DNA of 64,000 nt from Leptolyngbyaceae cyanobacterium (GTDB lineage Bacteria > Cyanobacteriota > Cyanobacteriia > Phormidesmidales > Phormidesmidaceae), in assembly GCA_965263355.1 (NCBI GenBank), contig CBDHHL010000056.1, positions 384,001 through 448,000 of the forward strand. The letters are read 5' to 3'. The first letter of the stretch is position 1. Each line of letters opens with the position of its first letter. The notes beneath the pieces are model-generated. The model searched no databases. It had not been told where the DNA came from and saw only the letters and a program-made list of their open reading frames with translations. A program made the position numbers and the translations under genes. Below, piece by piece: positions 34,378-52,848 of this stretch.

Positions 34378-35730
34378 TTAATAAGCACCACTTATATCTT
34401 CGGATGATATGTGGTGCACAGGTGCCCAGTGGAGTTCTTTCATCATTTGGGAAAAAATGCGATATTCCTCCAGGGAAGCAGTTTCTGGATTGCTCGCCTT
34501 AGCCTCGTCTTGTTGAACCTGAACCAGGTTATATTGCACATCACTGCCACAAATAGCCAGGGTTACACCGTAAATCTCCAAAAAGTTAATAATCCACTGA
34601 CATTCTTCCCGAGGAAACTGCTCATAGTAGCGAATGAGGTCAGCAATCCGAGCATCTAAATACGGATGAGAATTGGGGGAAATCAAAAGTAGCTTAAGTA
34701 AAACAATGGCCAACGTCAGTGGTCGGCCATTGGTTAACAACAAGCTAAACAGAGATGACGGCGTTGTTGCATCCTCCGTCATCAAATAGTCAATGACTCG
34801 ATTGCTTGTCAGCAGCGCTAACGAAGCATCTACCGGCTGCTGATTAAACTTGACATACAAACCCTTCAATTTCGATAGCAATCTATTTTCGAGGGTCAGC
34901 ACAAAATCAGTTCTAATGGCCGAAAAAAGCAGGTACTCAACCAGGCTATTTTTATAGCTACCATAGGTCAATCCTCGGGTCTGCTCATGAAAAATACGAG
35001 CCAGGTTACGGTGGCTAAACATACCCCGCTTAGCTACCAGGGTTCTAATCACTCGTAAAGCAGCATCCCCTAACATTGTCGGGTTGTCCCGACGCTCCCT
35101 TTGAATAGGGGTCTGTTGAAAATGGGCCGTATACATGGCCAGATCAAACTTAAACTTATCCCTCAGACGCTGAGAAAGAGCCCTTGCGGCCTCCCGCTGC
35201 TCTAGAGGATTACTAGTATCAATGTATTGAGGTGCTAGTAAATATGCCGTATAGCGTCTGGACCAGTGGGGGTCCTCACTATTAAAACGGTTTTCAACAA
35301 AAAGCTTGAGGTCTTGAAAATCCTCGCTGTCAACAAAATATTGCAGCCATTGTCGCAATCGCTTAATCGTTGGCGATATCGACACCTTACGAATAACTGG
35401 ATCGGCAAACAGCTGAATCAATCCCCTAATAGCATTATACTCACGGGCAACTTCCCAGTTATTGATCAGAATGTAGCAGGAGCGCTTTAGGGTGTTTTGA
35501 AACTCCACCTTATCGTTTGCAAATAAGATGGCATAAAGAGCAGGAACGGTATTTGAACCTATGGTTTCATGATGCTGCAAAAAAAGCGCCTTAAATTCTT
35601 CCAGCACATCTTCCGCAGGCCATGCTTTAACGATGTTTAGCAGGAATTCATATATCGTTTGCTGTGCCTGCTGAACGTCTTGGTACCGACGCCTAGGATT
35701 AAACGAATCAGAAACTCTATCAACAACCAT
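34378..35730 (-). CDS. Conserved-looking hypothetical protein (helical)
   Basis: 450-aa ORF with normal composition; no family name recognised. Confidence 0.8.
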   Translation of the reverse strand: MVVDRVSDSFNPRRRYQDVQQAQQTIYEFLLNIVKAWPAEDVLEEFKALFLQHHETIGSNTVPALYAILFANDKVEFQNTLKRSCYILINNWEVAREYNAIRGLIQLFADPVIRKVSISPTIKRLRQWLQYFVDSEDFQDLKLFVENRFNSEDPHWSRRYTAYLLAPQYIDTSNPLEQREAARALSQRLRDKFKFDLAMYTAHFQQTPIQRERRDNPTMLGDAALRVIRTLVAKRGMFSHRNLARIFHEQTRGLTYGSYKNSLVEYLLFSAIRTDFVLTLENRLLSKLKGLYVKFNQQPVDASLALLTSNRVIDYLMTEDATTPSSLFSLLLTNGRPLTLAIVLLKLLLISPNSHPYLDARIADLIRYYEQFPREECQWIINFLEIYGVTLAICGSDVQYNLVQVQQDEAKASNPETASLEEYRIFSQMMKELHWAPVHHISSEDISGAY

Positions 35731-35963: not shown

Positions 35964-36118
35964 TGAGAAGGCTGAAACCTATATGCAGCCTACTGTATAA
36001 GAGTCAAGCACCATTACGAGCCTTATCAGCTCTACAATGCCTTATATTAAATTGTACAGACTTGCAGACAAATTGCATAGTCTTCACAATTTTTCATCGC
36101 CAAAAGAAGGCTTAAAAA

Positions 36119-36454
36119 TGGGGGCGGAGGGACTTGAACCCTCACGACCGTTTAAGGTCAACGGATTTTCACCCTCCCACAGCTTTCGCTGTTGCCACGC
36201 TGAGCGGGCTTTGAGGATTGGACCCTCCCTTTACCCTCGACTTGACGTTAGGGTAGCTCCCGTCGGGCCTCTGCACCTTCCCTGCAAGAGGACATTTGCC
36301 TCTTACGGGGCTTGGCTCAGGATTGCCTTATCTTCATCAGAACTTACCAATGAAGACTTAGGTTTCCCTGAGTTTGAGAGCTTCCACTTAGCAGATTTCT
36401 CCACTAAGGCTCAGTTTTCTAAGTCCGCAGCGTCTACCATTCCGCCACGCCCCC
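36119..36454 (-). tRNA. trnL: tRNA-Leu(UAA) split by a group I intron (exon 1 36454-36421, exon 2 36169-36119)
   Basis: Minus strand reads GGGGGCGTGGCGGAATGGTAGACGCTGCGGACTT^...^AAAATCCG...GGGTTCAAGTCCCTCCGCCCCCA. The acceptor stem pairs and the anticodon U^AA is restored on splicing. Confidence 0.97.
36170..36420 (-). ncRNA. Group I intron (about 251 nt) in the trnL(UAA) anticodon
   Basis: Conserved elements AAACTCAGGGAAACCTAA, GGCAATCCTGAGCC, AAGGTGCAGAGGCCCGACGGGAG and AAAGGGAGGGTCCA; ends in the terminal G. Confidence 0.95.
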
Positions 36455-36611
36455 TTTAGTTGAGTTAACTAGAGTGAATATATTAAACAGCTTTGCTGGT
36501 TATTTGACCACTCTCTAAAAAACTCCTGTTTAATTCCAACACCAACTGGTACTCTGTGCAACCCCCTGAACGCTATGATGACTTACGGTATGTGCAAAAC
36601 ACATAGGGGCT

Positions 36612-38666: not shown

Positions 38667-39641
38667 ATGAGAGTTTTGAAAAGCCGTCCTAGAGGTGCTA
38701 TTTGGCACTTGTTTAAAGCTGTAAGTTTTTTCTTGGTGGGTGTTCTATTGAGCACTCTATTGGTTTATGCCCATACCCCTGTGATGCCTGTGGATGCTCA
38801 GGTTCAGGTGAACAATACGGTGTCTGGGGCGTTTGATGACCCAACAGATCCTGATCGTCCTAGGTTGGTGGCTCCCGGCAACACAACGACGATTGGTGTC
38901 CCTCCTATCGGTGAGCAGCTGTTAAGGATAACAAAAACAGCAGATAAATCGGCAGCTGAACCAGGTGATGTGGTGATCTATCGCCTTTTGGTTGAAAACC
39001 TCAGTGAAGTGGCAGCCGGCCCTCTAACTGTTATGGATAATCTGCCACGTGGTTTGGAATATATCGAAGATTCAGTCAATACAGCCCCAATACCGCCTAA
39101 TTTGACAGATTTTTCTATATCAGGACGACAGCTGACGTTTCAGCTTGATTCCTTGGCCGCTGGTGCAATGGTCCAAATTCTTTACGCTGTGACCTTGACA
39201 CCGGATGCAATTAGGGGTTCAGGTATCAACGTTGCGAGTGCATCATCTCCTGGTTTTCCAACAGTTCAAGCTGAATTTCGTTTAACCATCCGCCCCGGCA
39301 TTTTGTCCGACTGTGGCACCATCATTGGTCGAGTCTTTGTGGACAAAAACTTTGATGGAGAACAACAGTCTGGTGAACCCGGCGTACCTAACGCGGTTAT
39401 TTACATGGATGACGGTAACCGCATCATTGCAGACCCAGATGGTCTTTTCTCTATGGCCAATGTGGTGTCGGGTAACCGGGTTGGTGTACTTGATCTGAGT
39501 AGTTTGCCGGGTTACACCTTGGCCCCCAATCTCTACCGCATAGAAAACAACAGTCAGTCTAGGCTGGTTCGCTTAGAACCAGGCGGTTTAGCTCGTATGA
39601 ACTTTGCAGTAACACCGACCTACGGGGAGGGCCAGAACTAA
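38667..39641 (+). CDS. Secreted DUF11 (Ig-like) + SdrD-B/CnaB-like domain protein
   Basis: Signal peptide, LRITKTADKSAAEPGDVVIYRLLVEN..VMDNLPRG DUF11 pattern, and GTIIGRVFVDKNFDGEQQSGEPGV domain. Confidence 0.85.
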   Translation: MRVLKSRPRGAIWHLFKAVSFFLVGVLLSTLLVYAHTPVMPVDAQVQVNNTVSGAFDDPTDPDRPRLVAPGNTTTIGVPPIGEQLLRITKTADKSAAEPGDVVIYRLLVENLSEVAAGPLTVMDNLPRGLEYIEDSVNTAPIPPNLTDFSISGRQLTFQLDSLAAGAMVQILYAVTLTPDAIRGSGINVASASSPGFPTVQAEFRLTIRPGILSDCGTIIGRVFVDKNFDGEQQSGEPGVPNAVIYMDDGNRIIADPDGLFSMANVVSGNRVGVLDLSSLPGYTLAPNLYRIENNSQSRLVRLEPGGLARMNFAVTPTYGEGQN

Positions 39642-42600
39642 TGATGATGCGTTTGTTATCTAACTTACTTTGTTTAGGACTGTTCACCACACTGACGGGT
39701 GTGGTGGCGTTACTGCAGCCGTCTCAGGCAGCTCAAGGGCAAGCGACTCAAGGGCAAGCTGCTTTATCACCCATTGACATTGATGCAGATATGGCGGTTG
39801 GTGCTGAGACACCACATCTGTTAGCTCAGGCCAGTGATGACCTACCTGACGATTTGCTCGATGCAAATACGTTGCCAGTGGCAGAGGACCCTGGAGAAGC
39901 CGAAGGCTTTATTGATGAAACCATTATTCGGTCGGTTCCCAGCCATCTGCCACCGCTGATTCAAGAGGAATTGGGCGATAATTTATCCCTGGAGATTTTT
40001 CCGGCAGCTGAGTCGTTTCTCCCGGCTGATGGTCGGTCCACGCTCACCCTTAAGGGAAATATTCTGGATGAGAATGGCAATCCTGTGCGTGAAGATGTGG
40101 TGGTTACCCTCACGGTCTCGGCGGGTAGCTTTATCGGTGCTGACTACGATATTGACCGCAGCGGGTTTCAGGTATTAGCTCGCCAAGGAGAATTTGAGGT
40201 TGAGCTACGGTCATCTCTTGATGCTCAAACGGTAACTATCCGTGCTAGCGCGTCAGCCCGTGAGGCTTTAGGCCTGGTAGACGATAAAGACACATCGCGA
40301 AAGCCAGCGGCTGAGCTTGACGGTTACACTCAAGTTAATTTCACGACGCCCTATCGTCCATCTTTAGTGGCCGGTGTCGTTGACTTTCGCTTTGGACCTG
40401 GGGCAACGAATCTTTGGGGTCGCTATGCCGACTTCCTGGAGCCAGGTGAGCTGGGAGAGTATGATGCTGATCTGAATGCGGGAATTTTTGCGACAGGCAC
40501 CATTGGTGACTGGTTGTTAACGGCAGCGTTTAATAGTGAGCGGGCTTTAAACGAACGCTGTAATGACAACCGTCTCTATCGAGATGTTCAGAGCTGTGAG
40601 CAAACCTATCCTACCTATGGCGACAGTTCCACCACCGACTTTTTAACCCCCTCGATTGATAGTTTCTATGTTCGTTTTGAGCAAGACTCTCAGATCGTCG
40701 GATATGAGCCCAACTTCTTTATGTGGGGGGATTACGATACGGATGAATTTGCCCGATTCTCCCAGGAGTTTTCGGCCCTAAGTCGTCAACTTCACGGCTT
40801 TAAGGGGAACTATACCTTCGGCAATGGGTTACAGTTAACGGCCCTGTATGCCAACAATGTCAGAGCACTGCAACGGGACACGATTGTGCCCGATGGCACG
40901 AGTGGTTATTACTTCCTGTCCCGTCGTCTGGTGTTGGCTGGTAGTGAAGATCTCTTTTTCGAGATTGAGGAACTCAACCGCCCCGGCACAGTGATTGAGC
41001 GAGTGCGTTTACAGCGAGGGATCGATTACACCATTGACTATGATCGCGGGGCAATTCTGTTTAATAGTCCTGTTTCTGCTGTTGATGCTAATCCCTTTGG
41101 TCCGGCACTAGTCCGACGAATTGTAGCGACCTATCAAATAGACGGGGACGATGATGATGGAGATTTGTTTGGTGGGCGACTGCAATACAATTTTGATACC
41201 AGCCTCGAATCCCCTAGCTGGATAGGTGCTTCCGCTATTGTTGAAAATCAGGGTGCTCAAGATTTTAGCTTAATTGGTGTGGATGCCCTGGTACAGCTGG
41301 GTGATTCTGGGCGGCTGGTGGCTGAGTTAGCCCGTTCTTCTTTGGATAACCCCACTGTTGATGAAGACGGCACTGCCATTCGGGTCGAGGCTACGGGCAA
41401 AATCACGCCAGATTTAGCAGGAACAGCCTATTTTAGAGATGCCGATAGTGGTTTTCGCAATGAGGCAACAACGAGTTTTAGGGCAGGCCAAACCCGTTGG
41501 GGTGGGCAATTGGGCTACAACCTGAGTCGCGATACTCAGCTCCAGCTCCAGTTTGACCGTGAAGAAAACAGAGGTAATGAAGATCTGATTCCCACGGCCA
41601 CAGAACAACTCCTGAATCCAGGCTTGGTCAGATCTGATGGGGCCACCGTAAACAATTCCATCACCACGATTCGGGCTGGGGTACAACAGCAGTTTGGTGA
41701 CCTCACGGGTAACTTGGATTGGGTTTATCGCGATCGCAATGACCGAGTTACCGGTACCGATGTCGAATCTAGTCAAATATCCGCTGGTCTCACCTGGCCC
41801 CTAGCCGAGAGATTAACCTTCCGGGCTCAATCAGATATTGCTCTGAGTAACGAAGATGACGCCTATCCAGGCCAAACGGTGGTAGGTCTTGACTGGGAAG
41901 TTTTGCCGGAAATTACCCTGAGATTTGCCCAGCGGTTCTTCCATGACGATGATGCCACTCCCGATGCTTTAACCACCGTCGATGCCCTCGTCAACTATGA
42001 CCTCACTGACAATACCGAATTGACTGGCCGTTACTCCATTTTGGGAGCCAACAACGGCATGAGTGGACAGGGGGCTCTGGGTTTGAACCATAGAATCAAT
42101 CTGGGGCCTGGGCTCCATGCAGATTTTGGTTTCCAGCGGATCTTTGGCGACAGTCTCTCCTCCATTACTGGCGGCAACCAGGTGATACAGCCCTACGCTG
42201 TAGGGCAGTCATCGGCGTCCTTAGGTCTGGTAAGCGGTACCACCTATACCTTGGGTCTGGAATACACTGACAACTCTGATTTTCAGGCCAGTGCCCGGTT
42301 TGAGCACCGCGACTCTGAGGATGGTGACAACACAGTTGTCACCGCATCCGCTGCGGGCAAACTCTCACCCGCACTGACAACGTTGGCTCGGTTTGAACAT
42401 GCTAACTTTTCTAATCAAACAATTACCGATCGGCTAAATAGTTCTACTAGCGCTCGTTTAGGCCTGGCTTACCGCAATCCAAAGAGTGACAAGTTCAATG
42501 CGCTGTTGAGCTATGAATATGCCATCAACCCCTCCAGTACGCCTAATTCTCTGCTGGTGGGTGCAGGCTCAGATTCGATTCAAGAGCATACCCTGGCCAT

Positions 42601-43144
42601 GGAGGGCATTTATGCTCCTAGCTGGCGCTGGGAGTTTTACGGCAAATATGCTCTAAGAGCAACTAACGCCGATTTAGATTCCCTGGGTGTAACATCGTCC
42701 AATGCTATTCACTTGGCTCAATTTAGAGCCACCCATCGGTTCGCCTACCGTTGGGATGTCACTGGAGAAATCCGTTACATCACTCAACCGGAAACGAATT
42801 ATGACGAGGTTGGATTTGCCCTCGAAGCCGGTTACTATCTCACACCAGACCTGCGTTTGGGATTGGGGTATAGCTTTGGTAGCGTCAATGATCGTTCCTT
42901 GGGTGGTAGTGGCTATCGATCAGATGATGGCCCCTACATAGGAGTTACCTTTAAGGTCAATGAGCTTTGGGATCAGTTTGGTCTTCAGCAGATAGCCCCG
43001 GCACAACAAGAGGAGTCCCTGGTCGAGGCCGACGGTTCGCCACCACCCACTGCAGAACCGGTCAGTGTTGTTCCGACATCAAATCAAGTAACGGAAGTCC
43101 CACAGACAACAGTTCCACAGACAACTGACGGGGGTGAGGAGTAA
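39641..43144 (+). CDS. Large predicted outer-membrane beta-barrel protein with N-terminal Ig-like domain
   Basis: Signal peptide, PADGRSTLTL invasin-like Ig motif, and about 700 aa of alternating amphipathic strands rich in Gly, Tyr and Phe; TAATG overlap with the upstream gene. Confidence 0.75.
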   Translation: MMMRLLSNLLCLGLFTTLTGVVALLQPSQAAQGQATQGQAALSPIDIDADMAVGAETPHLLAQASDDLPDDLLDANTLPVAEDPGEAEGFIDETIIRSVPSHLPPLIQEELGDNLSLEIFPAAESFLPADGRSTLTLKGNILDENGNPVREDVVVTLTVSAGSFIGADYDIDRSGFQVLARQGEFEVELRSSLDAQTVTIRASASAREALGLVDDKDTSRKPAAELDGYTQVNFTTPYRPSLVAGVVDFRFGPGATNLWGRYADFLEPGELGEYDADLNAGIFATGTIGDWLLTAAFNSERALNERCNDNRLYRDVQSCEQTYPTYGDSSTTDFLTPSIDSFYVRFEQDSQIVGYEPNFFMWGDYDTDEFARFSQEFSALSRQLHGFKGNYTFGNGLQLTALYANNVRALQRDTIVPDGTSGYYFLSRRLVLAGSEDLFFEIEELNRPGTVIERVRLQRGIDYTIDYDRGAILFNSPVSAVDANPFGPALVRRIVATYQIDGDDDDGDLFGGRLQYNFDTSLESPSWIGASAIVENQGAQDFSLIGVDALVQLGDSGRLVAELARSSLDNPTVDEDGTAIRVEATGKITPDLAGTAYFRDADSGFRNEATTSFRAGQTRWGGQLGYNLSRDTQLQLQFDREENRGNEDLIPTATEQLLNPGLVRSDGATVNNSITTIRAGVQQQFGDLTGNLDWVYRDRNDRVTGTDVESSQISAGLTWPLAERLTFRAQSDIALSNEDDAYPGQTVVGLDWEVLPEITLRFAQRFFHDDDATPDALTTVDALVNYDLTDNTELTGRYSILGANNGMSGQGALGLNHRINLGPGLHADFGFQRIFGDSLSSITGGNQVIQPYAVGQSSASLGLVSGTTYTLGLEYTDNSDFQASARFEHRDSEDGDNTVVTASAAGKLSPALTTLARFEHANFSNQTITDRLNSSTSARLGLAYRNPKSDKFNALLSYEYAINPSSTPNSLLVGAGSDSIQEHTLAMEGIYAPSWRWEFYGKYALRATNADLDSLGVTSSNAIHLAQFRATHRFAYRWDVTGEIRYITQPETNYDEVGFALEAGYYLTPDLRLGLGYSFGSVNDRSLGGSGYRSDDGPYIGVTFKVNELWDQFGLQQIAPAQQEESLVEADGSPPPTAEPVSVVPTSNQVTEVPQTTVPQTTDGGEE

Positions 43145-45219
43145 TGAAATCAACTATGCAGGTATCGAAACTAGTCAGAACGGTCGCCCTGGCCGTTACG
43201 TTTCCCCTAACGGTCCACACGTCAATGGTTCAAGCCCAGCCAGAAACGGTTACCCCCTATTCCATTATTGTTAACTCAGCCAATGATGGCGTTGTGCGAC
43301 CCGACGATGAACTCACACTGCGGGAAGCCATTGAGGTGATCAATGGCACATTGCCATTGACCGCACTGAGCACAGCTGAACAGGCCCGGATCACACCAGC
43401 GGCTAGCCCGTCGATTAATTTTAGCTTGGCAGGTGATACTACCATTGCCCTGGTGGCACCATTGCCTCCCATTATGGCTCCAGGCACCCTGATAGATGGG
43501 TCCAGCCAACCTGGTTATGGCCCTGTTTCTACCACGGATACCATGGTTACTGCAGTGCCTACCCCCGTAGTGGCACTGACCCCAGCCACCGGATCTGAAG
43601 TGCTCCGTGGACTGACCATTACGGCTGATGAGGTAACGGTGCGCGGTCTCAGCCTGTATGGATTTTCGGCCAGACATCGCTCCACCCAAACGACGCCCCC
43701 AGCCGATATTCTGATTACCCACCTGGCACCACCTGTAGACGCAGGTCTACCTGACCCTCCAGGCTGGCGAACGTTGCGGCCTGATGAAGACTCCAATGCC
43801 CCTGTGGGTGTAGTGATTGAGGATAACTGGTTAGGTATGTCGCCAACGGGACAAATGCCACCTGAAGAGCAGATGTCTGCCCTGGGTGTGTTTGTTTTTA
43901 ACGGTCTGGATACGGTGATCCAACGTAATCGAATTGAGTTTCATGAGGGCAGCGGTATCATTACGGGAGCCCAGGCCATGGGCATGGAGGTTACGGAAAA
44001 TACGATGCGGGCGAACGGTGTGGCTGGAATCCCCGATGCCATTCGTTTGGATGGCAACATTGATGGCACTGAAATTTATGGCAACTTGATGTGCGGCACC
44101 GATGGTAGTGGTGTGTTTATGTTTAAGCCTCAGGGTGCTGCCCGAATTTACAGTAACGATATTCGATTTAATGGGCGACGCTTTAGACGGGCTGCGGTCT
44201 ATCTTATGGGTAATGGCCATGAGGTGACTGATAATGTGATTCAGCATCAGCCAGGTCCGGGAGTTGCGATCGCATCCTATCCTCGCAGTGAAGGCAACGT
44301 TATTCGCAACAATACCTTTGCGGCTCTCGATGGCCTCAGCGTAGACCTGGGCCATAACGACAACAGCGGCATTCAAGATTTTCAGCGAAAAGACGGCCCC
44401 AACCCACCCCGCAATTCCTCGATGCGGCGTCGGGATACGGCCAATGGCTCGATCAACGCTCCGGAATTTGATGACTATGTCTTCCCAGTAAGCAATGGTC
44501 AAGTCACCTTAAGTGGTATCGCCGATCCGGGAACTGCCATTGACATCTATAAAGTTGTGGATCGCCAAGGGTACTACGGTGCCCTCAACGAATATGTGAC
44601 CACCGTATCTGCAGACGCAACCGGCAGTTTTATTGTAGAAGTCAATGTTCCGGACGGTACGTTACTCAGTGCGATCGCCACTGATGACGTTTACGGCACC
44701 TCGGAACCCTCGGCCATCACTGGTGTTGGTACCCTGGGAGATGGGCCAACAACCCCCGCCATGCCAAGTTGTGAAATTGCTCAAGAGCCCCCAGAACCCG
44801 CTCCGGAACTGCCGCCAGATCCAGTGATTTTACGAATTCCTCGCAACATTCACTTTGCCCTCGATAAGTCAGACATCTCTCCTGAGTCTGCCACCATCAT
44901 GGATGAGATTATCGCTGTTTTACTAGAATATCCATTTATTACCGTTGAGTTACAGGGACACACCGATCCTCGCGCTAGCAATGCTTATAACCAGGCCCTG
45001 GGTGAACGGAGGGCTTTGGCAGCGAGAAACTATCTGCTTCAGCGGGGGATTGCCCCAGAGCGCATGCGAATTCGCTCCTTTGGTGAAACACAACGGGTAT
45101 CTAGCGGTTCTGGACGCATTGATTATGCCCGCGATCGTCGCACTGAGTTTATCTTTACCGATACTCGCGGTCTCGACATCATCTACGAAAACTTGGAAAC
45201 AGATTTACAGCTCGAATAA
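43144..45219 (+). CDS. Secreted parallel beta-helix protein with C-terminal OmpA-like peptidoglycan-binding domain
   Basis: Signal peptide, IVNS..D..TLREAI (CSLREA-like) cap, G-x-x-I-x-x-N repeats, Pro-rich linker, and IHFALDKS..GHTD..YNQALGERRA. Confidence 0.88.
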   Translation: MKSTMQVSKLVRTVALAVTFPLTVHTSMVQAQPETVTPYSIIVNSANDGVVRPDDELTLREAIEVINGTLPLTALSTAEQARITPAASPSINFSLAGDTTIALVAPLPPIMAPGTLIDGSSQPGYGPVSTTDTMVTAVPTPVVALTPATGSEVLRGLTITADEVTVRGLSLYGFSARHRSTQTTPPADILITHLAPPVDAGLPDPPGWRTLRPDEDSNAPVGVVIEDNWLGMSPTGQMPPEEQMSALGVFVFNGLDTVIQRNRIEFHEGSGIITGAQAMGMEVTENTMRANGVAGIPDAIRLDGNIDGTEIYGNLMCGTDGSGVFMFKPQGAARIYSNDIRFNGRRFRRAAVYLMGNGHEVTDNVIQHQPGPGVAIASYPRSEGNVIRNNTFAALDGLSVDLGHNDNSGIQDFQRKDGPNPPRNSSMRRRDTANGSINAPEFDDYVFPVSNGQVTLSGIADPGTAIDIYKVVDRQGYYGALNEYVTTVSADATGSFIVEVNVPDGTLLSAIATDDVYGTSEPSAITGVGTLGDGPTTPAMPSCEIAQEPPEPAPELPPDPVILRIPRNIHFALDKSDISPESATIMDEIIAVLLEYPFITVELQGHTDPRASNAYNQALGERRALAARNYLLQRGIAPERMRIRSFGETQRVSSGSGRIDYARDRRTEFIFTDTRGLDIIYENLETDLQLE

Positions 45220-45240
45220 GGCCTGTGTTGGCTTGCTCAT

Positions 45241-48200
45241 TTGTTAGACCAATCTGTCAGTAACAGTAGAGAACTAGTAGAGAATTCAGCCGTGAAATTT
45301 TGTCATAACCACTTAAAGCAACTGTTCTTGCAAGGCCTTCCTTTCACTGGTAAAGGCTATTTCAAGCAAATGCCAAGCCATGGGAAACTAGCCCAGCCCC
45401 TGGCTTGGAGTCTTCCCCTTATCAGTATCCTGGCCAGTGCGCCCACTGCCTTAGCTCAAGTCAATGTCTCATTAGACTGGGATACCGTTGACTTTCCCGT
45501 AACAGGTTCAGAGATCTACACCGATGTTGGGGGTAGTGGTGTTGATGTACAGATCTCGGTAACGGGGGCTGTTACAGGTAACGGTAACCCTAACCTTAAC
45601 TTGGGGGATTCTGGCTTCGTCACAACGACTCCATTCACTGCAGGCGATCCACCGGTTACACCAGGTGCCGTAGAAACCCTGCTTGTCGGTATTGAAGGCG
45701 GCTCCGAAGCAGTTGTTACCATCGAGTTTTTTGAAACTGGCACAACAACTCCTGTTGACGTTGATCTGGCCTCTATTCCCCTGTTTGATGTTGATCTTCT
45801 GTTTAATAGTAATAATGTAGTTAGCTGGCAGGATGAAGTTGAAGTATCGGCTTCATCAGGAGGAGTAGCTGCTGACATTACAACTAGTGATGGTGCTGGT
45901 GCGAATGAAGGGTCATTTAATGCAGAGACTGCTGGAGCTGATTCAGTCACTCTGATTGGATTTAATACCATCGATGATCCCGGTATACCAGCTGCTCCGA
46001 GTGTAAATGCTAATTCACCAAGACAACCACTTCGAACTACGCCAACAACCATTGGTGAGTTTCAACAGGGCAATGCTACCGTTAACTTTCCCGGTGAAGT
46101 CGATACAATTACCATTGTGTTTCGTGATGGTCCAGCCACTCCTACAGGATCGGGGAATTTCCATGCGATCGCTATCGGTGATATTTCCTTCACCGCCAAC
46201 CTGACACCAGCAACTCCCTCTATCGGTATTGCTAAAGAGATTGACGGCGTACCCACCGAGACGGCTACTCCTGGAATCTTTGAGCTGACCTACAACCTAA
46301 CCATTGCAAATACGGGCAGTGAAGCTCTGAATACCGTCCAGATTGTCGAAGACTTTATCGACCCGATTACCGGTGGACCTACCTTTGGTCCTGGTAATAT
46401 CATTTCTTCAACCATCGGGACAGTTATACCCACTGGTGGCGCTATTATCGAAACTAACGACGCCTACAACGTCGCAGCCACTGGTGTAGCCAACGCTAAT
46501 GTCCTAGTCGCCGCTAACTCCAGCCTACCCGTTGGGGCCAGCGCGACAATTCCCATCACGATCCAAGTAGATACCACTCAGCCTGATTTCCCACCTGATG
46601 GAGGCGACGGCTATAACAACCAGGCCACCGTTACTGCAATAGGAGAAAGTGGTACTCCGGCCCCACCGGATGACTCAGATAATGGCACCGAGCCAGACCC
46701 TAATGGTAACGGAGATCCAACGGAAGACGGTGAAAATGACCCCACCCCTGCATCCTTTGCCTTTGCACCGGCCATTGGTCTGGCTAAACAGGTTGCTTCC
46801 CCCCCTACGCCAGCCGCCACGCCGGGTTTCTTTAACATTACCTATCTGCTAACGGTGGAAAACCTGGGTAACGAACAATTGGATGAGGTACAGATTGTCG
46901 AAGACTTTATCGATCCCCTGACTGCTTTACCTACCTTTGGTCCTGGCAATATTACTGTTTCAAATATTGGAACAATTACCAATAACGGTGGTGGCACCTT
47001 AACCCTCAATCCTGACTACAACGCTACTGCTACGGGCACTGCTAATAGCGATGTCCTGGCCACTGGAGGAAGTCTGCCCATCGGGGCCAGTGCGACGATT
47101 CCCATCGTTATTCAAGTAGACACCACTCAGCTCGACTTTCCAGACGATACCGCTGGTGATGGCTTTAACAACCAGGCCACAGCGTCTGGAACTGGTGCCA
47201 ATAGTGGAGAAGGGGTAGAGGATGAGTCAGATGATGGTACCGAGCCAGATTCGGATGGTAACGGCAGTGCAGATGATCCAGGTGAGGATGATCCCACCCC
47301 AGTCACCTTTGAGACTGAACCCGCTGTCGGTATAGCGAAACAGATTGCCGACGGACCAACCGAAACGACTACTCCCGGCATCTTTGAGCTGACCTACAAC
47401 CTAACCATTGAAAATACAGGCACTGAAGCCCTAGATGCTGTCCAAATAGATGAACCCTTCTTTGACCCGATTACCAATGGGCCCACATTTGGCCCTGACA
47501 ATATTGTGTCTTCAACCATCGGGACGGTCATACCCAGTGGTGGCGCTGTTATCGAAACTAACGACAACTACAACGTATCAGCCACTGGCCCCACCGATAC
47601 CAGTGTCTTGGTGGAAGCTAGCTCCAGCCTACCCTTGGGTGCCAGTGCGACGATTCCCATTACAATACAGGTAGATATTACTCAGCCTGATTTCCCAGCT
47701 GATGGGGGAGACGGATATAACAACCAGGCAACCGTTACTGGAACGGGAGAAAGTGGCAATCCAGCACCACCGGATCTGTCGGACGATGGCACCGAGCCAG
47801 ACCCAAATAACAACGGTGATCCAACGGAAGACGGTGAAAATGATCCCACACCCGCATCCTTTGATTTGACGCCTGCCATTGGTGTGTCTAAACGAGTAAT
47901 CTCTGCCACTACTCAGCCAGATGGTGACTTTGAGGTGGTTTATGAAACAACCGTTGAGAACCTGGGTCAAGTCACCTTAACTGATGTGCAATTGGTGGAA
48001 GATCTAGATGACACCTATGGAGAGGGGGCCTTTCAGATTATTTCAACCCCTGACTTCACACCACGTGGCACGGTAGATGAAGTCGAACTTGAAGTAAATG
48101 ACAACTTTGACGGTGATGCTCCCAACGGTATTCCCGGTGATACCAATATCATTTTGCCAACGGGACAAACTTTGCAGCCAGGTCAAAATTCTACATTCCA

Positions 48201-49560
48201 ATTCACGGTTGAAATTGATAACGACTTAATCGTCACACCTGACGAGTTTGAAAACCAAATCGAAGCCAGTGGTCTACCTCCTGGTGCAACCACTGATGCT
48301 GAACGCGTTCGTGACTTGTCTGACGACGGTGTGGAAACAGACGAAAATCCCAACGATGGACAACCCGGTAATGGACCTAACGAAGATGATCCGACTGTCG
48401 TGGCTCTACCGCCAACCCCGGTTATCGGTTCTGCTAAACAGACAGTGTCAGCGTTGGTTGAATCGGCTGGAACCTTTGGTACTAATACGGCTCGGATAAC
48501 CTATGACATTATCGTGGCTAACATTGGTAATGTTCCTTTGTTAGAGGTTCAGTTAGAAGAGGATCTCAGTGAAGTATTTGGTCCGGCAGATACGTTTGAG
48601 GTTGTCAGTATTACCCGGATCGGTGGTGCTAATACAGTACAGGTAGATCCTGGCTTTGACGGTGTTAACGGCGGTAATACAACATTACTGGCAGATGTAG
48701 CTGGTACTGCAACAGGTACATTGGCCGTTGGCGCATCCAGTACTTTACAGCTAGTGGTGGATGTTGACTTTAGCAGTCCCAATCTGATTACGCCTGTACC
48801 AGGCCCCTATCTAAATCAGGTGATCGCGACGGCTACTGATGATCCGAATGATCCCCCTGGCACTCCTCCTGTCACGTCTGACCCATCTGATAGTGGTATG
48901 GATGTTGATCCAGATGGAGATGGTAATCCCAATGAAGACAATGGTGTGGACCCAGATCCAGAGAATCCAGAGAATGACGGTAATGAAAATACGCCGACAC
49001 AGGTCACATTTACCCCTGATTTACGGCTGGTCAAACGCATTACTCGGGTAACTCGAAATGGCACAGAGCTGGCAATTGCAAACATTGGCTTATTTAATGA
49101 TCAAGCTAGCGACACCAACGATAATGCGTTGGCAACACTATCGGGTGATAATTTCCCCCTAGGACGAGCAGATATCACCGATGTGTCTTTACAGTCTGGT
49201 GATCTTGTTGAGTACACTGTCTACTTCTTTAACGCGGGTGTTGGTGTCGCTGAAAATGTGGAGATGTGTGATGAACTACAAGTACCGAGCGTCTTACAGC
49301 CCACTAGTTTACAGTTGGCTCAACCCACTGATGGTTCTACTCTAAACTTCTCTAATATTGGACCTCTGTCTGCAAGAGCACCTTTATCTCCTTTGGAGCC
49401 TTCTTGTGAGACGGCACCTGGAACATTTCCATCAGGTGTACCTTCAGGAGGTTTGGGCGTTGGTGCGGGTGGCGGAGTCGTCGTTGGGGGGCCTGAGTCT
49501 GGGCTTAACGTTAATAGCGGCGAAGTGGGTGCGTTTCGGTTTGAAATTGAGATTCCATAA
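45241..49560 (+). CDS. Large acidic repeat surface protein or adhesin with six DUF11-like Ig domains (true start probably near ATG 45370)
   Basis: Signal peptide ending ALA|Q, unique N-terminal domain, repeats whose IG.AK-type Lys codons lie at 46234, 46786, 47338, 47890, 48436 and 49033, and D/N/P-rich DPNGNGDP linkers. Confidence 0.88.
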   Translation: MLDQSVSNSRELVENSAVKFCHNHLKQLFLQGLPFTGKGYFKQMPSHGKLAQPLAWSLPLISILASAPTALAQVNVSLDWDTVDFPVTGSEIYTDVGGSGVDVQISVTGAVTGNGNPNLNLGDSGFVTTTPFTAGDPPVTPGAVETLLVGIEGGSEAVVTIEFFETGTTTPVDVDLASIPLFDVDLLFNSNNVVSWQDEVEVSASSGGVAADITTSDGAGANEGSFNAETAGADSVTLIGFNTIDDPGIPAAPSVNANSPRQPLRTTPTTIGEFQQGNATVNFPGEVDTITIVFRDGPATPTGSGNFHAIAIGDISFTANLTPATPSIGIAKEIDGVPTETATPGIFELTYNLTIANTGSEALNTVQIVEDFIDPITGGPTFGPGNIISSTIGTVIPTGGAIIETNDAYNVAATGVANANVLVAANSSLPVGASATIPITIQVDTTQPDFPPDGGDGYNNQATVTAIGESGTPAPPDDSDNGTEPDPNGNGDPTEDGENDPTPASFAFAPAIGLAKQVASPPTPAATPGFFNITYLLTVENLGNEQLDEVQIVEDFIDPLTALPTFGPGNITVSNIGTITNNGGGTLTLNPDYNATATGTANSDVLATGGSLPIGASATIPIVIQVDTTQLDFPDDTAGDGFNNQATASGTGANSGEGVEDESDDGTEPDSDGNGSADDPGEDDPTPVTFETEPAVGIAKQIADGPTETTTPGIFELTYNLTIENTGTEALDAVQIDEPFFDPITNGPTFGPDNIVSSTIGTVIPSGGAVIETNDNYNVSATGPTDTSVLVEASSSLPLGASATIPITIQVDITQPDFPADGGDGYNNQATVTGTGESGNPAPPDLSDDGTEPDPNNNGDPTEDGENDPTPASFDLTPAIGVSKRVISATTQPDGDFEVVYETTVENLGQVTLTDVQLVEDLDDTYGEGAFQIISTPDFTPRGTVDEVELEVNDNFDGDAPNGIPGDTNIILPTGQTLQPGQNSTFQFTVEIDNDLIVTPDEFENQIEASGLPPGATTDAERVRDLSDDGVETDENPNDGQPGNGPNEDDPTVVALPPTPVIGSAKQTVSALVESAGTFGTNTARITYDIIVANIGNVPLLEVQLEEDLSEVFGPADTFEVVSITRIGGANTVQVDPGFDGVNGGNTTLLADVAGTATGTLAVGASSTLQLVVDVDFSSPNLITPVPGPYLNQVIATATDDPNDPPGTPPVTSDPSDSGMDVDPDGDGNPNEDNGVDPDPENPENDGNENTPTQVTFTPDLRLVKRITRVTRNGTELAIANIGLFNDQASDTNDNALATLSGDNFPLGRADITDVSLQSGDLVEYTVYFFNAGVGVAENVEMCDELQVPSVLQPTSLQLAQPTDGSTLNFSNIGPLSARAPLSPLEPSCETAPGTFPSGVPSGGLGVGAGGGVVVGGPESGLNVNSGEVGAFRFEIEIP

Positions 49561-49585: not shown

Positions 49586-49627
49586 AGCCCTCTAACATTG
49601 GTTTATTGAATGTTAGAGGGCTATTTT
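49586..49627 (+). terminator. Hairpin or terminator after the adhesin gene
   Basis: AGCCCTCTAACATT...AATGTTAGAGGGCT 14-bp stem followed by ATTTT. Confidence 0.7.
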
Positions 49628-49645
49628 CTGGAGGTCCACATTATT

Positions 49646-50863
49646 ATGGTCTTCTCAAAACGTAAACGCCTGTTAATTTGTGGGTTCTATGGCCATTACA
49701 ATTTAGGCGATGAAGCCATGTTGGCAGGTATGCTTGGCTTGCTCAAACACTGTCTTGGTGCTGATTATCTCCAGCAGATCACTGTTTATTCCAATGATCC
49801 AGAGGATACAACCAAACACCATGGTGTTGCTACGTTACGTAACCAGTTTCCCCGTCGTCGTCGTGAAAAGTGGATAAAGTGGGCTGAACATACACTGGCA
49901 TTATGGCAACACCAATTTTTTATCTTGGGGGGAGGTGACTTACTGAGGGACTCGCCTGGGCGGGAGGTGGCTACTGTGTGGTTAAAGCCGCTTCAGCGAG
50001 CGATGGCTTTTGGTTGTCGTACCATTGTTTTGGGCATTAGTGTAGGGGAGGTTTGGAAGCCTCAGACAAAGAGCGCCATTGTTAACACTTTAAATCAAGT
50101 AACGTTGATCGCTGTGCGTGATCAACAGTCTCAGAGGCAACTAAAGCAAATGGGGGTGACTTGTCCTATCTACGTGTCGAGTGATTTAGCACTGCATATA
50201 ACGCCTACCCAATTACGCTCGAGGTCTCAAGCAGCGTTACCTACATCAGACTTTAATATTTCTGCGCCTAATGTAGGCATTTCTATACGGTCTTTATTGG
50301 GGCGTACGCCAGAACTCGATCACAGTATTGAGCAGCAGTTTTATCAGGAAATGGCCAAGGTCATTGATTATTTGATTGAAGTGAAGGGAGCAACGGTTTC
50401 AATGTTGCCGTTTCAAACCCATCCCCCTAGCTATAAGTCTCAGCACCGCCCTACGGATAATGATGAAGATGCGATCGCAACCGTATTGTCTTACTGTCAA
50501 CACCGACAGCGGGTAAGTGTCCACAGACCATTTGATTCTGTGGCACAGGCTATCGATACATTGAAGTCGTTTGACTTAGTCATTGGCACTCGCCTGCATT
50601 CCCTTGTGCTAGCTGCATTGTCGGGCATTCCCCTATTGGCCGCTGTTTATGATAAGAAGGTGTCTGGGTTTATGGCAGAAATTGACCAACAGATCAACAG
50701 TATTGCAGTGCAGCAGTTTACCTTGGCAACCGTTAAACCTCGCCTTGACGATCTATTGACCCATCACCAGCAAAATCATCATAGAATTGTGCAGATGGTT
50801 GAGCAATATCGTCGGAAGACGGATCCTGTTTTAGAAAAGCTATCTCAACTCCTGGGGAGCTGA
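49646..50863 (+). CDS. Polysaccharide pyruvyl transferase (CsaB/WcaK-like)
   Basis: GFYGHYNLGDEAML, GGGDLL, AVRD..S, SDLA and GTRLHS. Start placed at ATG 49646 after GGAGG, because the ORF-track start at 49610 lies inside the hairpin. Confidence 0.9.
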   Translation: MVFSKRKRLLICGFYGHYNLGDEAMLAGMLGLLKHCLGADYLQQITVYSNDPEDTTKHHGVATLRNQFPRRRREKWIKWAEHTLALWQHQFFILGGGDLLRDSPGREVATVWLKPLQRAMAFGCRTIVLGISVGEVWKPQTKSAIVNTLNQVTLIAVRDQQSQRQLKQMGVTCPIYVSSDLALHITPTQLRSRSQAALPTSDFNISAPNVGISIRSLLGRTPELDHSIEQQFYQEMAKVIDYLIEVKGATVSMLPFQTHPPSYKSQHRPTDNDEDAIATVLSYCQHRQRVSVHRPFDSVAQAIDTLKSFDLVIGTRLHSLVLAALSGIPLLAAVYDKKVSGFMAEIDQQINSIAVQQFTLATVKPRLDDLLTHHQQNHHRIVQMVEQYRRKTDPVLEKLSQLLGS

Positions 50864-50864
50864 A

Positions 50865-51854
50865 ATGAGTCATTTTTCTAGCACGCCCATATTTATTGTC
50901 GGGATGCCTCGTTCTGGAACAACGCTTCTGACTAGTATGTTGTCGGCCCATCCTAGGATTGCGATCGCCCCAGAAACCCACTATCTCTCCTATTGGATAC
51001 GGGAGTATAAAAACCTAAATCTCTCTTCTCCAAAAGACTTTGACCATTTTTGGCAAGCTATCAGCCGTAGTCTGCGGTTCTCATATTTTGGTATCAGTGC
51101 TAACAAAACCCGAAATCGCATCTTAGCCAAAGGTTTACCGTCACACCAGCATATTTTGTCAGGCTGGTTAGAAGAGTATGCCAACAGTTTCCATAAGCCA
51201 CGTTGGGGTGAAAAGACGCCACTACACTATCAAAACCTGGAGCAAATACTCACCTGGTTTCCCAATGCTCAGGTTATATGGATGCTGCGAGACCCAAGAG
51301 CGGTCGCTGCATCTCTCCAAAAAGTCCCTTGGGCTAGTAATTATATTCATATCCATGCCCAGCAGTGGCAACAAAGCCTGATTAAGTTTGAACAAAACTG
51401 GCAAAGCGATCCACGCATCCATCTATTGCACTATGAAAAACTCGTACAACAACCTGAAAAATACCTCACAGCATTATGCCAATTTCTCGGCGAAACCTAT
51501 ACGCCTGATATGTTAACAGCACGCTCCGAAGCCCATACTCCCCTGATCAATCGTCAGGGTTGGGCGCTTCAGCATCTACAATCAGCCCTACAACCCATCT
51601 CAGCTAACGCTATCAATAAATGGCATCACGATCTCACCAAACACCAGATTGAGATTATTGACTTGCTCACCTTTCCCCATGCAGCTAACTATGGCTACAT
51701 GGCAAACACATCAACCCTCGGTACCCATGCCCGCTTAACATTAACAATAGAAAGGCTGCGGGTAAAACTCGATCGTAAGCTTACACATTGGCGAACAAAA
51801 TTACTTAAACGGTCCAAGCAAACAGCAAAATACATTGGTGCAGACCCTGAATAA
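50865..51854 (+). CDS. Sulfotransferase family protein
   Basis: PIFIVGMPRSGTT, RWGEKTP and RDPRAV; paralogue of 1678-2673. Confidence 0.87.
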   Translation: MSHFSSTPIFIVGMPRSGTTLLTSMLSAHPRIAIAPETHYLSYWIREYKNLNLSSPKDFDHFWQAISRSLRFSYFGISANKTRNRILAKGLPSHQHILSGWLEEYANSFHKPRWGEKTPLHYQNLEQILTWFPNAQVIWMLRDPRAVAASLQKVPWASNYIHIHAQQWQQSLIKFEQNWQSDPRIHLLHYEKLVQQPEKYLTALCQFLGETYTPDMLTARSEAHTPLINRQGWALQHLQSALQPISANAINKWHHDLTKHQIEIIDLLTFPHAANYGYMANTSTLGTHARLTLTIERLRVKLDRKLTHWRTKLLKRSKQTAKYIGADPE

Positions 51855-52028
51855 GCAACCTCAGGTTTGGAAATATGGTTAATTGAGCAATAGCCCTGTG
51901 CCTATAGGCTCCAATATCCCTTAAAAAGGGTTAGCATCTGGACTTATAGGGTCTAATGTCCTATCATTAGAATTGAAAATATTGTTGTTGCCAAAAATGC
52001 AGTTGTTCAATGGGTGCATTTAAAGTGA

Positions 52029-52793
52029 ATGGCTCTATTTAAGCATCAGTTAAAGCTTTACTTTGATTTTGTCCGTTCTAGCTCAGATTATACAGCCCAA
52101 CAATTTATAATCTTTGGCCGAGGACGATCGGGTAGTACAACACTTGTCAGCCTACTTAATTGTTTACCAGACGTCTATTGTGATGGTGAAATTTTAGCGC
52201 AGTCTGTCCTTTGGCCTCAGGTGTATCTCAAAGCCCATGCTATGAAAGCCCATAGGGCTGTTTATGGGTGTAAAGTTTTAAGTTATCAACTCCGAGATGC
52301 ACAGCATATCCAACAAGGATCAGATTTTTTATATGAACTAAGCCAGTCAGGGGTTCATATTCTTTACTTAAGACGAGAAAACCTGCTTGAACATGCTATT
52401 TCTAATATCCGCGCCCGTAGTTTTGGCTTTCACAAAAGTAGGCTGGAAGGTCTCAAAAAAAGTAAAGTTTGTGTAAATCCCATAGAAGTTATTGATTGGA
52501 TAGAAAAAAGTCAACGTCTATGGAACTATGAGTCGTCCTTATTGCGGAATATTCCTCATCTGGCATTGACCTACGAAAAGAACTTAGCCAGTGAGAGTCA
52601 ACATCAGCCTACGATTGACAAGGTTTGTCATTATCTTGAAATTCAATCTAGCTCTGTGGTTAGTCAATATCAAAAGGTATCGCCACAGACTCTACAGTCA
52701 TCCATAGAAAATTATGATGAGTTGGCTAACTATCTTAGAAAGACTCCCTATTACCATTATCTTGAGGCTTATCCAGCCTTTTCTCCCACTTAA
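52029..52793 (+). CDS. Stf0-like sulfotransferase
   Basis: FIIFGRGRSGSTTLVSLLN, LRRENLLEHAIS and LTYE motifs. Confidence 0.75.
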   Translation: MALFKHQLKLYFDFVRSSSDYTAQQFIIFGRGRSGSTTLVSLLNCLPDVYCDGEILAQSVLWPQVYLKAHAMKAHRAVYGCKVLSYQLRDAQHIQQGSDFLYELSQSGVHILYLRRENLLEHAISNIRARSFGFHKSRLEGLKKSKVCVNPIEVIDWIEKSQRLWNYESSLLRNIPHLALTYEKNLASESQHQPTIDKVCHYLEIQSSSVVSQYQKVSPQTLQSSIENYDELANYLRKTPYYHYLEAYPAFSPT

Positions 52794-52848
52794 TAGCAAG
52801 TCTATTCGGTAGCATAATTACATCTATGGTAATTCCACTGCTGACCGG

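Follow-up and report, generated by a model that had tools for sequence, protein, structure and literature searches.

Four adjacent genes (g1 to g4) in a 64,000-nucleotide stretch of DNA from a Leptolyngbyaceae cyanobacterium, hereafter the window, quite probably encode a predicted machine in which the adaptor g1 completes the C-terminal domain (CTD) of the cargo protein g4, likely with a Lys-Asn isopeptide bond, and docks on g2, a predicted barrel of about 40 strands, which g3 ties to peptidoglycan. The best reading of the contact between adaptor and cargo is a split-domain, probably covalent, joint. The four genes are co-oriented, all on the plus strand in the ORF listing of the window, and the unit is laid out as follows.

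38667 to 39641, plus strand: g1, the adaptor, 324 aa, with signal peptide, N-terminal two-strand extension, complete CLIPPER/DUF11 domain and SdrD_B-like C-terminal domain
39641 to 43144, plus strand: g2, a predicted giant barrel protein of the outer membrane, 1167 aa
43144 to 45219, plus strand: g3, 691 aa, with right-handed beta-helix, Ig and Pal/OmpA-type domains
45370 to 49560, plus strand: g4, the variable repeat protein (cargo); ORF from TTG 45241 (1439 aa), likely start ATG 45370
49586 to 49626, plus strand: hairpin and short U-tract, terminator-like by folding energy, closing the unit

An earlier note on this DNA had described four co-oriented genes with TAATG stop/start overlaps and a closing hairpin, and the coordinates bear this out: the overlaps are present at 39639-39643 (g1/g2) and 43142-43146 (g2/g3), and the hairpin at 49586 is confirmed (49586-49621; 14-bp stem, then AUUUU; -26.3 kcal/mol, z = -5.0, equalled by 0 of 200 shuffles). 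The loop of the hairpin is too long for a simple terminator scan, which therefore passed it over, and a scan for consensus promoters and terminators gave background level only. The layout of the four-gene unit stands, with one correction at the start of g4: in the TTG ORF 43 residues precede a plausible signal peptide (MPSHGKLAQ...ALA/Q), and translation therefore probably begins at ATG 45370 and not at TTG 45241, giving a g3-g4 gap of 150 nt. The signal peptides of all four products were called by eye from the translations. Pfam and NCBIfam matches gave the domain make-up that the note had described, and its statement that recognizable export parts are missing is matched by Pfam, in which neither the four genes nor the nine flanking ORFs (33-54 kb) have a match to an ATPase, POTRA, usher, chaperone, autotransporter or T1SS domain. 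No energy source is encoded in the unit. Pyruvyl-, sulfo- and glycosyltransferase (EPS) genes lie downstream, past the hairpin.

The cargo g4 is made up of DUF7507/DUF11 repeats with acidic linkers (Pfam) and has no match by sequence among solved structures. Both g1 and g4 exceed the gathering score of PF01345 (44.3 and 39.6 bits, respectively, against 24.6) and the cut-off of TIGR01451 (46 and 40.9 bits against 24). According to the available text of PMC12617251, CLIPPER domains form the stalks of extracellular fibrillar adhesins, and in CnaA-like CLIPPER domains the bond links the first and penultimate strands (K715, D748 and N806 in 9IFR). The last domain of g4 departs from this scheme, and its relevant parts are these.

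49009 to 49557, plus strand: incomplete CLIPPER domain (the CTD) of g4, P0004 residues 1257-1439, ending directly after the F-strand
49033 to 49035, plus strand: Lys1265 of g4, the isopeptide Lys of the CTD
49270 to 49272, plus strand: Asp1344 of g4, the catalytic Asp of the CTD

Complete CTDs of the family stop before the last two strands, 0-1 residue from the stop codon, in all 45 cases, and the strand that would bear the Asn is absent in 45/45, leaving the CTD of g4 with no triad in cis; the Lys is kept in 48/48 and the Asp in 48/49. The missing strand is present in all five internal repeats of g4, where the K, D and N motifs are kept. This C-terminal CLIPPER/DUF11 domain is the sole part common to g4-type proteins; the remainder varies and includes adhesin-type modules (cadherin-like/Big_9, GEVED, P_proprotein and acidic Ca-type linkers), and some loci hold 2-5 CTD genes. 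Judged by sequence, the cargo proteins form a variable family with one common C-terminal domain.

Pfam assigns g1 a DUF11 domain (44.3 bits, cut-off 24.6) and a weak SdrD_B match, and no solved structure matches it by sequence. Its parts beyond the signal peptide are as follows.

38799 to 38912, plus strand: g1 residues 45-82, the orphan last two CLIPPER strands (predicted donor hairpin), found by alignment and forming the predicted interface
38814 to 38816, plus strand: Asn50 of g1, invariant in 18/18 aligned sequences
38916 to 39266, plus strand: the complete DUF11/CLIPPER domain of g1 itself, with K90, D124 and N188 invariant in 18/18
39279 to 39626, plus strand: SdrD_B-like (CnaB-type) domain, where conservation within g1 is highest

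While the adaptor's own domain holds the full Lys/Asp/Asn triad in cis, the triad of the cargo domain is divided, with the Lys and catalytic Asp in the g4 CTD and the Asn at the mature N-terminus of g1. Mature g1 starts with x-I-x-N-[TQ]-A in 59 of 62 homologues by pattern and in two further variants by eye (61/62). One CLIPPER domain is divided between two polypeptides, and any bond would therefore be intermolecular; a Lys-Asn isopeptide bond between g4 and g1 is likely on the strength of these motifs. Complex prediction for g1 (residues 45-324) with the g4 CTD gave 0.71 (runs 0.74, 0.71 and 0.71) against 0.02 for the best control. Solved complexes attain the mark of the g1-CTD pair in 116 of 157 cases and mismatched pairs in 2 of 215, although the score is the predictor's own confidence and may simply mirror reassembly of a known fold. 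The partners have pLDDT of at least 75 and the runs share at least 82% of contacts, with g1 residues 45-60 and 66-79 facing CTD residues 7-18 (with the Lys), 61-80 and 86-101 (with the Asp). BLASTP detects no significant similarity between g1 and g4, and direct alignment with mafft put the CTD in the wrong place because of an insert in the CTD; the kinship of g1 and CTD rests on HMM cross-matches at about 1e-6 and on motif reading. The split-domain signature and the complex prediction together support the link between adaptor and cargo that the earlier note had suggested. The literature searched, which takes in few subscription journals, describes no CLIPPER system that is split or anchored on a barrel.

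The second gene product has weak Big_1 and Porin_4 matches only in Pfam. Its AF2 model consists of an Ig domain and about 40 beta-strands by DSSP (pLDDT 67.1, pTM 0.60), in line, at moderate confidence, with the proposal that the 1167-aa protein is a very large barrel. In this model the long connections are on one side for strands 1-8 and on the other for strands 9-40, which makes both the number of strands and a single-barrel topology insecure.

39986 to 40255, plus strand: Ig-like domain of g2, residues 116-205, Big_1/Invasin_D3-like by Pfam, AF2 model and structure match
40313 to 42955, plus strand: barrel region of g2, residues 225-1105, to which DSSP assigns about 40 beta-strands in the AF2 model
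40856 to 41107, plus strand: beta-rich insert of 84 residues (406-489) between barrel strands 8 and 9, conserved by alignment and AF2 model

The Ig-like domain resembles the Ig domains of GH2 (Z about 12.5, rmsd 2.0-2.7 Å over about 104 residues), and the insert may act as a plug or in docking. Among the Foldseek matches of the model the best are large outer-membrane barrels, headed by the SLH-barrel SlpA and including SprA, TonB-dependent transporters (TBDTs), MtrB, LptD and FimD, all at TM up to 0.29; Foldseek and VIA gave generic barrel matches with no family standing out, and SprA (TM 0.14-0.16) is likewise a generic giant-barrel match. NCBI names many homologues TonB-dependent receptor, and TBDTs do appear among the generic barrel matches, but that g2 is such a receptor is hardly credible. 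Neither Plug (PF07715) nor TonB_dep_Rec (PF00593) is found in g2 even at E up to 10, NCBIfam has no match for it, a sequence profile built from 28 homologues matches no solved structure, TBDTs included, and the model, insecure as its strand count is, has about 40 strands against 22 and aligns with TBDTs only generically, at TM up to 0.25 (Z about 14, rmsd 7.8-11 Å); the name is unsupported because no plug or receptor HMM matches. The g2 family comprises 3286 representative clusters at E up to 0.001; a protein atlas gave only clusters that are unnamed or named TonB-dependent, and a homologue search seeded with a Rivularia barrel returned only 'hypothetical protein' or 'TonB-dependent receptor' and no named model-organism gene. 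One homologue is listed for Leptolyngbya sp. BL0902, a tractable strain.

The donor-strand principle predicted for g1 with g4 recalls chaperone-usher pili, in which case g4-type subunits would polymerise head to tail on the barrel by donor-strand exchange and g1 would be the terminating anchor subunit. The N-terminal Ig domain and early beta insert of g2 could be likened to the N-terminal domain and plug of FimD, itself among the fold matches, and some loci have 2-5 CTD genes. Such a pilus is nevertheless decidedly improbable: no donor motif is shared by the N-termini of the 50 CTD-bearing frames and only g1 carries one, g4-family proteins starting with AEGS[KR][ED]L, AQT and the like and the Asn being unconserved in the present subfamily; g2 has no HMM match to the usher (PF00577); no PapD-like chaperone gene occurs among the four genes and nine flanking ORFs; and the TM to FimD is at most 0.29. 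Polymerisation of g4 had been considered and was dropped after inspection of these N-termini.

The proposed machine is also supported by gene neighbourhoods. A survey of 71 loci placed g1 directly upstream of g2 in 64, the remaining seven having no more than 102 nt of upstream DNA, so that adjacency holds in 64/64 loci with enough sequence. A CTD-bearing gene lies downstream in 46 of the 71 loci (50 frames), and in three whole genomes of relatives 13 of 14 CTD-profile matches fall within 30 kb of a barrel gene. No CTD gene is nearby in L032, L057 and L062 (at least 8.7 kb of downstream DNA) or in L053 (4.2 kb), where g1 and g2 are present. The flanking genes change between cyanobacterial orders, and the genes are co-conserved across these orders in differing surroundings, in keeping with the earlier note. 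Phyla other than the cyanobacteria have single proteins of 1500-2900 aa that unite g1, g2 and the OmpA part of g3. The g1 module is N-terminal to the barrel in 15/15 long homologues examined by BLASTP and, by HMM, in 53 of the 62 representatives that measure 1500 aa or more, which supports the adaptor-barrel link; in the same 62, at least 10 carry an OmpA domain in one chain with the barrel, which supports the OmpA-barrel link. In the fused homologues the SdrD_B-like domain of the g1 module adjoins the barrel, and we infer that this domain of g1 contacts g2.

In g3 a beta-helix (residues 39-401, Beta_helix) and an Ig domain (448-528, Big_6) precede a Pal/OmpA-type peptidoglycan-binding domain (560-681, OmpA), which matches PF00691 at 61.5 bits (cut-off 27.2) and superposes on Pal (4g4w) with TMt 0.91, rmsd 1.6 Å and 36% identity; solved structures found by sequence for g3 are OmpA domains only. 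Asp608 and Arg623, which we take to be the peptidoglycan-binding residues of OmpA-like domains, are invariant in 16/16 aligned sequences. The gene is found in 52 of 71 loci and missing from 15 with room for it; g3 is an optional component. By structure match the beta-helix is akin to carbohydrate-active beta-helices, tailspike depolymerases among them, and the EPS genes past the hairpin are present downstream in the closest relatives too (families F10-F12), which could point to polysaccharide export or modification, with the barrel as an EPS porin and g3 as a lyase or epimerase acting with the pyruvyl-, sulfo- and glycosyltransferases. We regard this as very improbable, since outside the closest relatives the EPS genes are not retained while g1, g2 and g4 are, g3 is dispensable in 15 loci, and the split CLIPPER signature and the g1-barrel fusions would be left unexplained.

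A further possibility is that nothing is exported, and that all four products, g4 included, stay in the periplasm or outer membrane and brace the outer membrane to peptidoglycan in the manner of SLH-porins, OmpA and Pal. The Pal-like domain of g3, the SLH-barrel SlpA as top match of g2 and the lack of any energy source or known translocon part are consistent with such a brace, as are the fused homologues, in which the OmpA domain follows the barrel in P0187, P0254, P0256 and P0132 and precedes it in P0219 and P0273, and in three of which a peptidoglycan-binding domain stands between the g1 module and the barrel (SLH in P0172, OmpA in P0219 and P0273). This alternative is unlikely, since g4-type proteins are highly variable and carry adhesin-type modules, CLIPPER domains are stalks of extracellular fibrillar adhesins in the available text of PMC12617251, and several different cargo genes per locus would be needless for a tether. 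The same three inserts suggest that the C-terminal end of the adaptor is periplasmic, and in view of them any passage of the chain across the membrane is only putative.

For the adaptor-cargo-barrel machine favoured here we propose the following course. All four proteins would leave the cytoplasm via Sec. The N-terminal strands of g1 would supply the two beta-strands missing from the CLIPPER/DUF11 CTD of g4, a Lys-Asn isopeptide bond would likely seal the joint, the C-terminal domain of the adaptor would dock on the g2 barrel, and the OmpA-type domain of g3 would tie g2 to peptidoglycan. The cargo may pass the wide lumen of g2 folded or domain by domain and would then be held by g1, whose C-terminal end probably remains in the periplasm; this would leave the variable N-terminal part of g4 outside, mechanically coupled via the barrel to the wall. 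As no ATPase is encoded, export may be driven by folding outside and by Ca2+ binding of the acidic linkers, as in autotransporters.

More broadly, and only tentatively, we suggest that the unit represents an unnamed, widespread class of anchoring or secretion system in diderms, in which a barrel that, at about 40 strands, would belong to the largest class so far made from one chain, a snap-in adaptor hairpin and a spontaneous Lys-Asn lock would hold interchangeable adhesins coupled to the wall, encoded by split genes in cyanobacteria and by single giant proteins in Acidobacteriota and deltaproteobacterial lineages. The barrel family is very large and unstudied, its members annotated as hypothetical or, wrongly, as TonB-dependent receptors. 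If the proposal is correct, it would constitute a previously undescribed way for Gram-negative cells to mount large surface adhesins, with a joint formed by one domain shared out between two genes, a natural counterpart of SnoopTag/SnoopCatcher that links an adhesin across the outer membrane with the wall. It would explain the shear-resistant fixing of variable surface proteins in filamentous, mat-forming cyanobacteria, and could provide cyanobacterial biotechnology with a display scaffold and with new orthogonal pairs for protein ligation.

The proposed machine shares features with several known systems. With the CLIPPER adhesins (DUF11, PF01345; 9IFR; PMC12617251) it has in common the domain family, a Lys/Asp/Asn triad placed on the first and the penultimate strand, and the role as adhesin stalk; unlike them, it divides the domain, with Lys and Asp in g4 and Asn in g1, and the available text of PMC12617251 mentions neither barrels nor split domains. 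Strand donation between subunits with a spontaneous covalent bond is also reported for archaeal threads (PMC9715654) and for BsaA of Clostridium perfringens (bioRxiv 10.1101/2024.11.04.621531), which in contrast are homopolymers of other folds and families, archaeal or Gram-positive, with no outer-membrane barrel. Type IX secretion likewise combines a giant barrel (SprA), variable cargo with an Ig-like C-terminal domain and an OmpA-type wall anchor (PorE), but the present unit has no PorLM-like motor and its CTD is an incomplete CLIPPER domain; no T9SS component (SprA, PorV, PorU, PorLM) or CTD model in NCBIfam was above cut-off, the generic OmpA part of PorE reaching 68 bits against a cut-off of 600. 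Classical autotransporters (type Va) resemble the fused homologues in having an N-terminal passenger and a C-terminal barrel, whereas the barrel here is about three times larger without a match to PF03797 (the 12-strand translocator), and passenger, adaptor and barrel are separate genes joined by domain complementation. Threaded RTX adhesins of the LapA/LapE type are retained at a TolC-like pore, and here too a part that stays at or in the pore would keep the adhesin on the surface. Chaperone-usher pili (FimD/PapC) also complete an incomplete Ig-like fold with the N-terminal extension of another protein, on an outer-membrane barrel platform that has a periplasmic domain at its N-terminus, carries a beta insert early in the barrel and uses no ATP. 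They differ in that the present unit has neither an usher HMM match nor a chaperone gene, that the model has about 40 barrel strands against 24, and that two strands are donated in place of one, with a covalent lock likely; and since the g4 cargo has no donor strand of its own, the joint would be 1:1, holding a single adhesin where the pili build a polymer.

The window holds the four co-oriented genes claimed in the earlier note, all present as ORFs:

38667-39641, + strand, g1, the adaptor, an ORF of 324 aa
39641-43144, + strand, g2, the giant barrel protein, an ORF of 1167 aa
43144-45219, + strand, g3, the beta-helix/OmpA protein, an ORF of 691 aa
45241-49560, + strand, g4, the variable repeat protein (cargo), an ORF from TTG of 1439 aa

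Both TAATG overlaps described there (g1/g2 and g2/g3) are real, and the closing hairpin was recovered at 49586-49621 (-26.3 kcal/mol, z = -5.0), with 0 of 200 shuffles folding equally well. The proposed domain list matches the Pfam and NCBIfam results, which gave DUF11 and a weak SdrD_B match for g1, nothing beyond weak Big_1 and Porin_4 matches for g2, Beta_helix, Big_6 and OmpA for g3, and DUF7507/DUF11 repeats for g4. Judged by eye, each of the four products looks to start with a Sec signal peptide; because that of g4 begins at Met44 of the TTG ORF, the start of g4 is probably ATG 45370, a correction to that ORF.

The operon is flanked by unrelated genes, with trpA lying upstream across a gap of ~700 nt. 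Two upstream ORFs lack a Pfam match, one at 34378-35730 (- strand, 450 aa) that is kept beside the operon in close relatives (flanking-gene family F7) and one at 36037-36459 (+ strand, 140 aa). Directly past the hairpin, 49610-54096 encodes a polysaccharide pyruvyl transferase, a sulfotransferase and a GT4 glycosyltransferase, families that reappear downstream only in the closest relatives. Since the ATG of the first of these ORFs falls within the hairpin, the real start codon is probably ATG 49646. SLH domains bind pyruvylated wall polymers; the tie to a pyruvyl transferase next to the operon may be coincidence or otherwise.

A scan with one genome per species yielded 263 stretches encoding a g2 relative, and 71 loci were retained, whose record titles name cyanobacteria in 67 cases and "uncultured bacterium" in 4. 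Profile searches place g1 immediately before g2 in 64 of the 71 loci; in the remaining 7, no more than 102 nt of sequence is available upstream. The g3 gene was found in 52 loci and is absent from 15 that extend 2.9 kb or more downstream; it is an optional part. A gene with a g4-type C-terminal domain (CTD, the truncated last CLIPPER/DUF11 domain of these proteins) is present on the downstream side in 46 loci (50 frames). The order g1-g2-(g3)-g4 is preserved and the flanking genes vary between orders; that the unit exports a polysaccharide is a reading to which we give very little credence. Of 401 genomes sampled from the phylum, 55 match g2 at E up to 1e-10, and in two relatives there is also a paralogous second locus.

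Several loci depart from this plan. A relative's second locus (L072/L073, G001:C5:5360001-5400000) encodes a histidine kinase, a 910-aa DUF7925 protein, a 515-aa long form of g1, a 1393-aa barrel and a protein with beta-helix and OmpA parts. Next come five genes with g4-type CTDs and differing heads (P_proprotein, GEVED, SdrD_B); one IS200-like ORF and a pair of AAA-like genes interrupt this run. At L032, L038, L042, L060 and L066, a small DUF11 ORF (189-220 aa; e.g. L038:7293-7955) and a DUF7925 gene (~850 aa) precede a long g1 with a ~200-residue insert past the donor strand, the N-terminal region predicted to complete the CTD. A subtype comprising L032, L053, L057 and L062 has a longer barrel protein (1450-1524 aa) and g1, with no g3 or cargo gene nearby; Pfam searches of the additional N-terminal segment in two of these barrel proteins gave no match. 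In Adonisia turfae (L008, 13510-14820) g3 stops after ~437 aa with no cargo gene behind it; the sole stray CTD match (G002:C11:3009363-3009944) is 1.1 Mb away, which suggests a rearrangement.

The AlphaFold2 model of g2, built with 28 homologues (mean pLDDT 67.1, pTM 0.60), has an acidic, disordered N-terminus, then an Ig domain (116-205) and ~40 beta-strands over 225-1105, with an 84-residue beta insert past strand 8; a conserved tail closes the sequence. Starting with strand 9, short and long connections alternate as in outer-membrane proteins with periplasmic termini. The long, highly conserved connections of strands 1-8 lie on the opposite side, and we can only guess that they form a plug or docking element. 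Residues 299-341 (window ~40535-40663) contain a conserved cysteine pair, C307 being invariant and C319 nearly so, in a long, highly conserved connection of low model confidence; the g4 CTD also has two conserved cysteines. The top Foldseek matches of the model were SlpA, SprA, TBDTs, MtrB, LptD and FimD, all with TM at most 0.29, and VIA returned generic barrel matches only, plus GH2-type Ig domains for residues 113-237. NCBI often names g2 homologues "TonB-dependent receptor"; with no match to Plug or TonB_dep_Rec in g2 even at E up to 10, this identity is unsupported and we regard it as scarcely credible.

Relatives of g4 have only their last ~190 residues in common, and their N-terminal parts vary (P_proprotein, GEVED, SdrD_B, DUF11). 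In three whole genomes, 13 of 14 CTD matches are no more than 30 kb away from a barrel gene, and one genome has five CTD genes in a row at its second locus. The CTD is a CLIPPER/DUF11 fold. According to the CLIPPER domain survey (PMC12617251), such domains carry a Lys-Asn isopeptide linking the first to the penultimate strand, with Asp as catalyst. In the CTD the Lys (48/48) and Asp (48/49) are conserved, and every complete CTD (45/45) ends 0-1 residue past the strand "GF.RF.V.V", before the Asn strand, which is present in all five internal repeats of g4. Mature g1 opens with "x-I-x-N-[TQ]-A", 4-10 residues past the predicted cleavage site; among 62 homologues, 59 have this motif by pattern, 2 are variants recognized by eye and 1 has an unclear start. 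Asn50 of g1 is invariant in 18/18 aligned sequences, and its strand is followed by a second with a nearly invariant Asn72 and then by g1's own complete domain (K90, D124, N188).

Complex prediction of g1(45-324) with the g4 CTD scored 0.71 (runs 0.74, 0.71 and 0.71) versus 0.02 for the best control, a value that 116 of 157 solved complexes attain, as do 2 of 215 mismatched pairs. Partner pLDDT did not fall below 75, and at least 82% of contacts agree between runs. The predicted interface joins g1 45-60 and 66-79 to three CTD segments: 7-18 (the Lys strand), 61-80 (its neighbour) and 86-101 (the Asp strand). This model supports binding of g1 to the g4 CTD, and its confidence may be owed to knowledge of the intact fold. 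As modelled, the N-terminal strands of g1 and the g4 CTD look like halves of one domain; a divided CLIPPER domain that would join cargo to adaptor is the most interesting feature here and goes beyond the first reading.

An Ig+barrel profile matched 3286 representative proteins at E up to 0.001 and 1334 at E up to 1e-30. Beneath the cyanobacterial tier are proteins of 1000-2900 aa with a C-terminal barrel, some of them from Acidobacteriota and "Deltaproteobacteria" MAGs by their source names. The best 150 profile matches include 62 representatives with a length of 1500 aa or more, and 53 of these have the g1 module (DUF11 + SdrD_B) N-terminal of the barrel; BLASTP confirmed it in 15 of 15 fused proteins examined (28-39% identity to g1, E 1e-20 to 1e-42). 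OmpA domains occur C-terminal to the barrel in P0187, P0254, P0256 and P0132 and between g1 module and barrel in P0219 and P0273; P0172 has three SLH domains at the latter position. P0228 also contains DUF7925, which the paralogous locus encodes upstream as a gene of its own. These fusions indicate that g1, g2 and the portion of g3 that binds the wall belong to a single apparatus. Taken in the order g4, g1, g2, (g3), the split genes show colinearity with these single-chain giants.

We propose that a covalent bond would seal the g1-g4 joint, that the very conserved SdrD_B-like domain of g1 would dock on g2, and that g4 would pass through the g2 barrel and be surface-exposed. Because wall-binding domains sit between g1 module and barrel in the fusions, the C-terminal end of g1 is argued to be periplasmic; hence a threaded arrangement is favoured, in which the cargo would lie outside and the joint or stalk in or below the barrel lumen. 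A ~40-strand barrel is presumably wide enough for a folded Ig domain, as estimated from usual barrel geometry. The beta-helix of g3 gave generic beta-helix protein matches only, and its OmpA domain closely matches Pal. That the whole assembly is a bracing complex confined to the periplasm seems unlikely to us. An usher-like fibre, FimD being among the structural matches, has a slim chance: no donor motif was found in N-termini of the g4 family, and on that sequence evidence a 1:1 g1-g4 joint is expected, not a pilus.

The observation in the earlier note is confirmed, and its interpretation (a barrel as translocon or platform, tethered by the OmpA protein and linked by the adaptor to a displayed adhesin) is supported in each computationally testable link, namely co-conservation, the barrel model of g2, the g1-barrel and OmpA-barrel fusions, and the g1-g4 prediction. 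Full-text literature searches found no account of this barrel/adaptor/cargo system, and barrels go unmentioned in the passages of the CLIPPER survey (PMC12617251) considered. Natural filaments combining donor strands with isopeptide bonds do occur, according to excerpts of the respective reports, in archaea (PMC9715654) and Clostridium (bioRxiv 10.1101/2024.11.04.621531).
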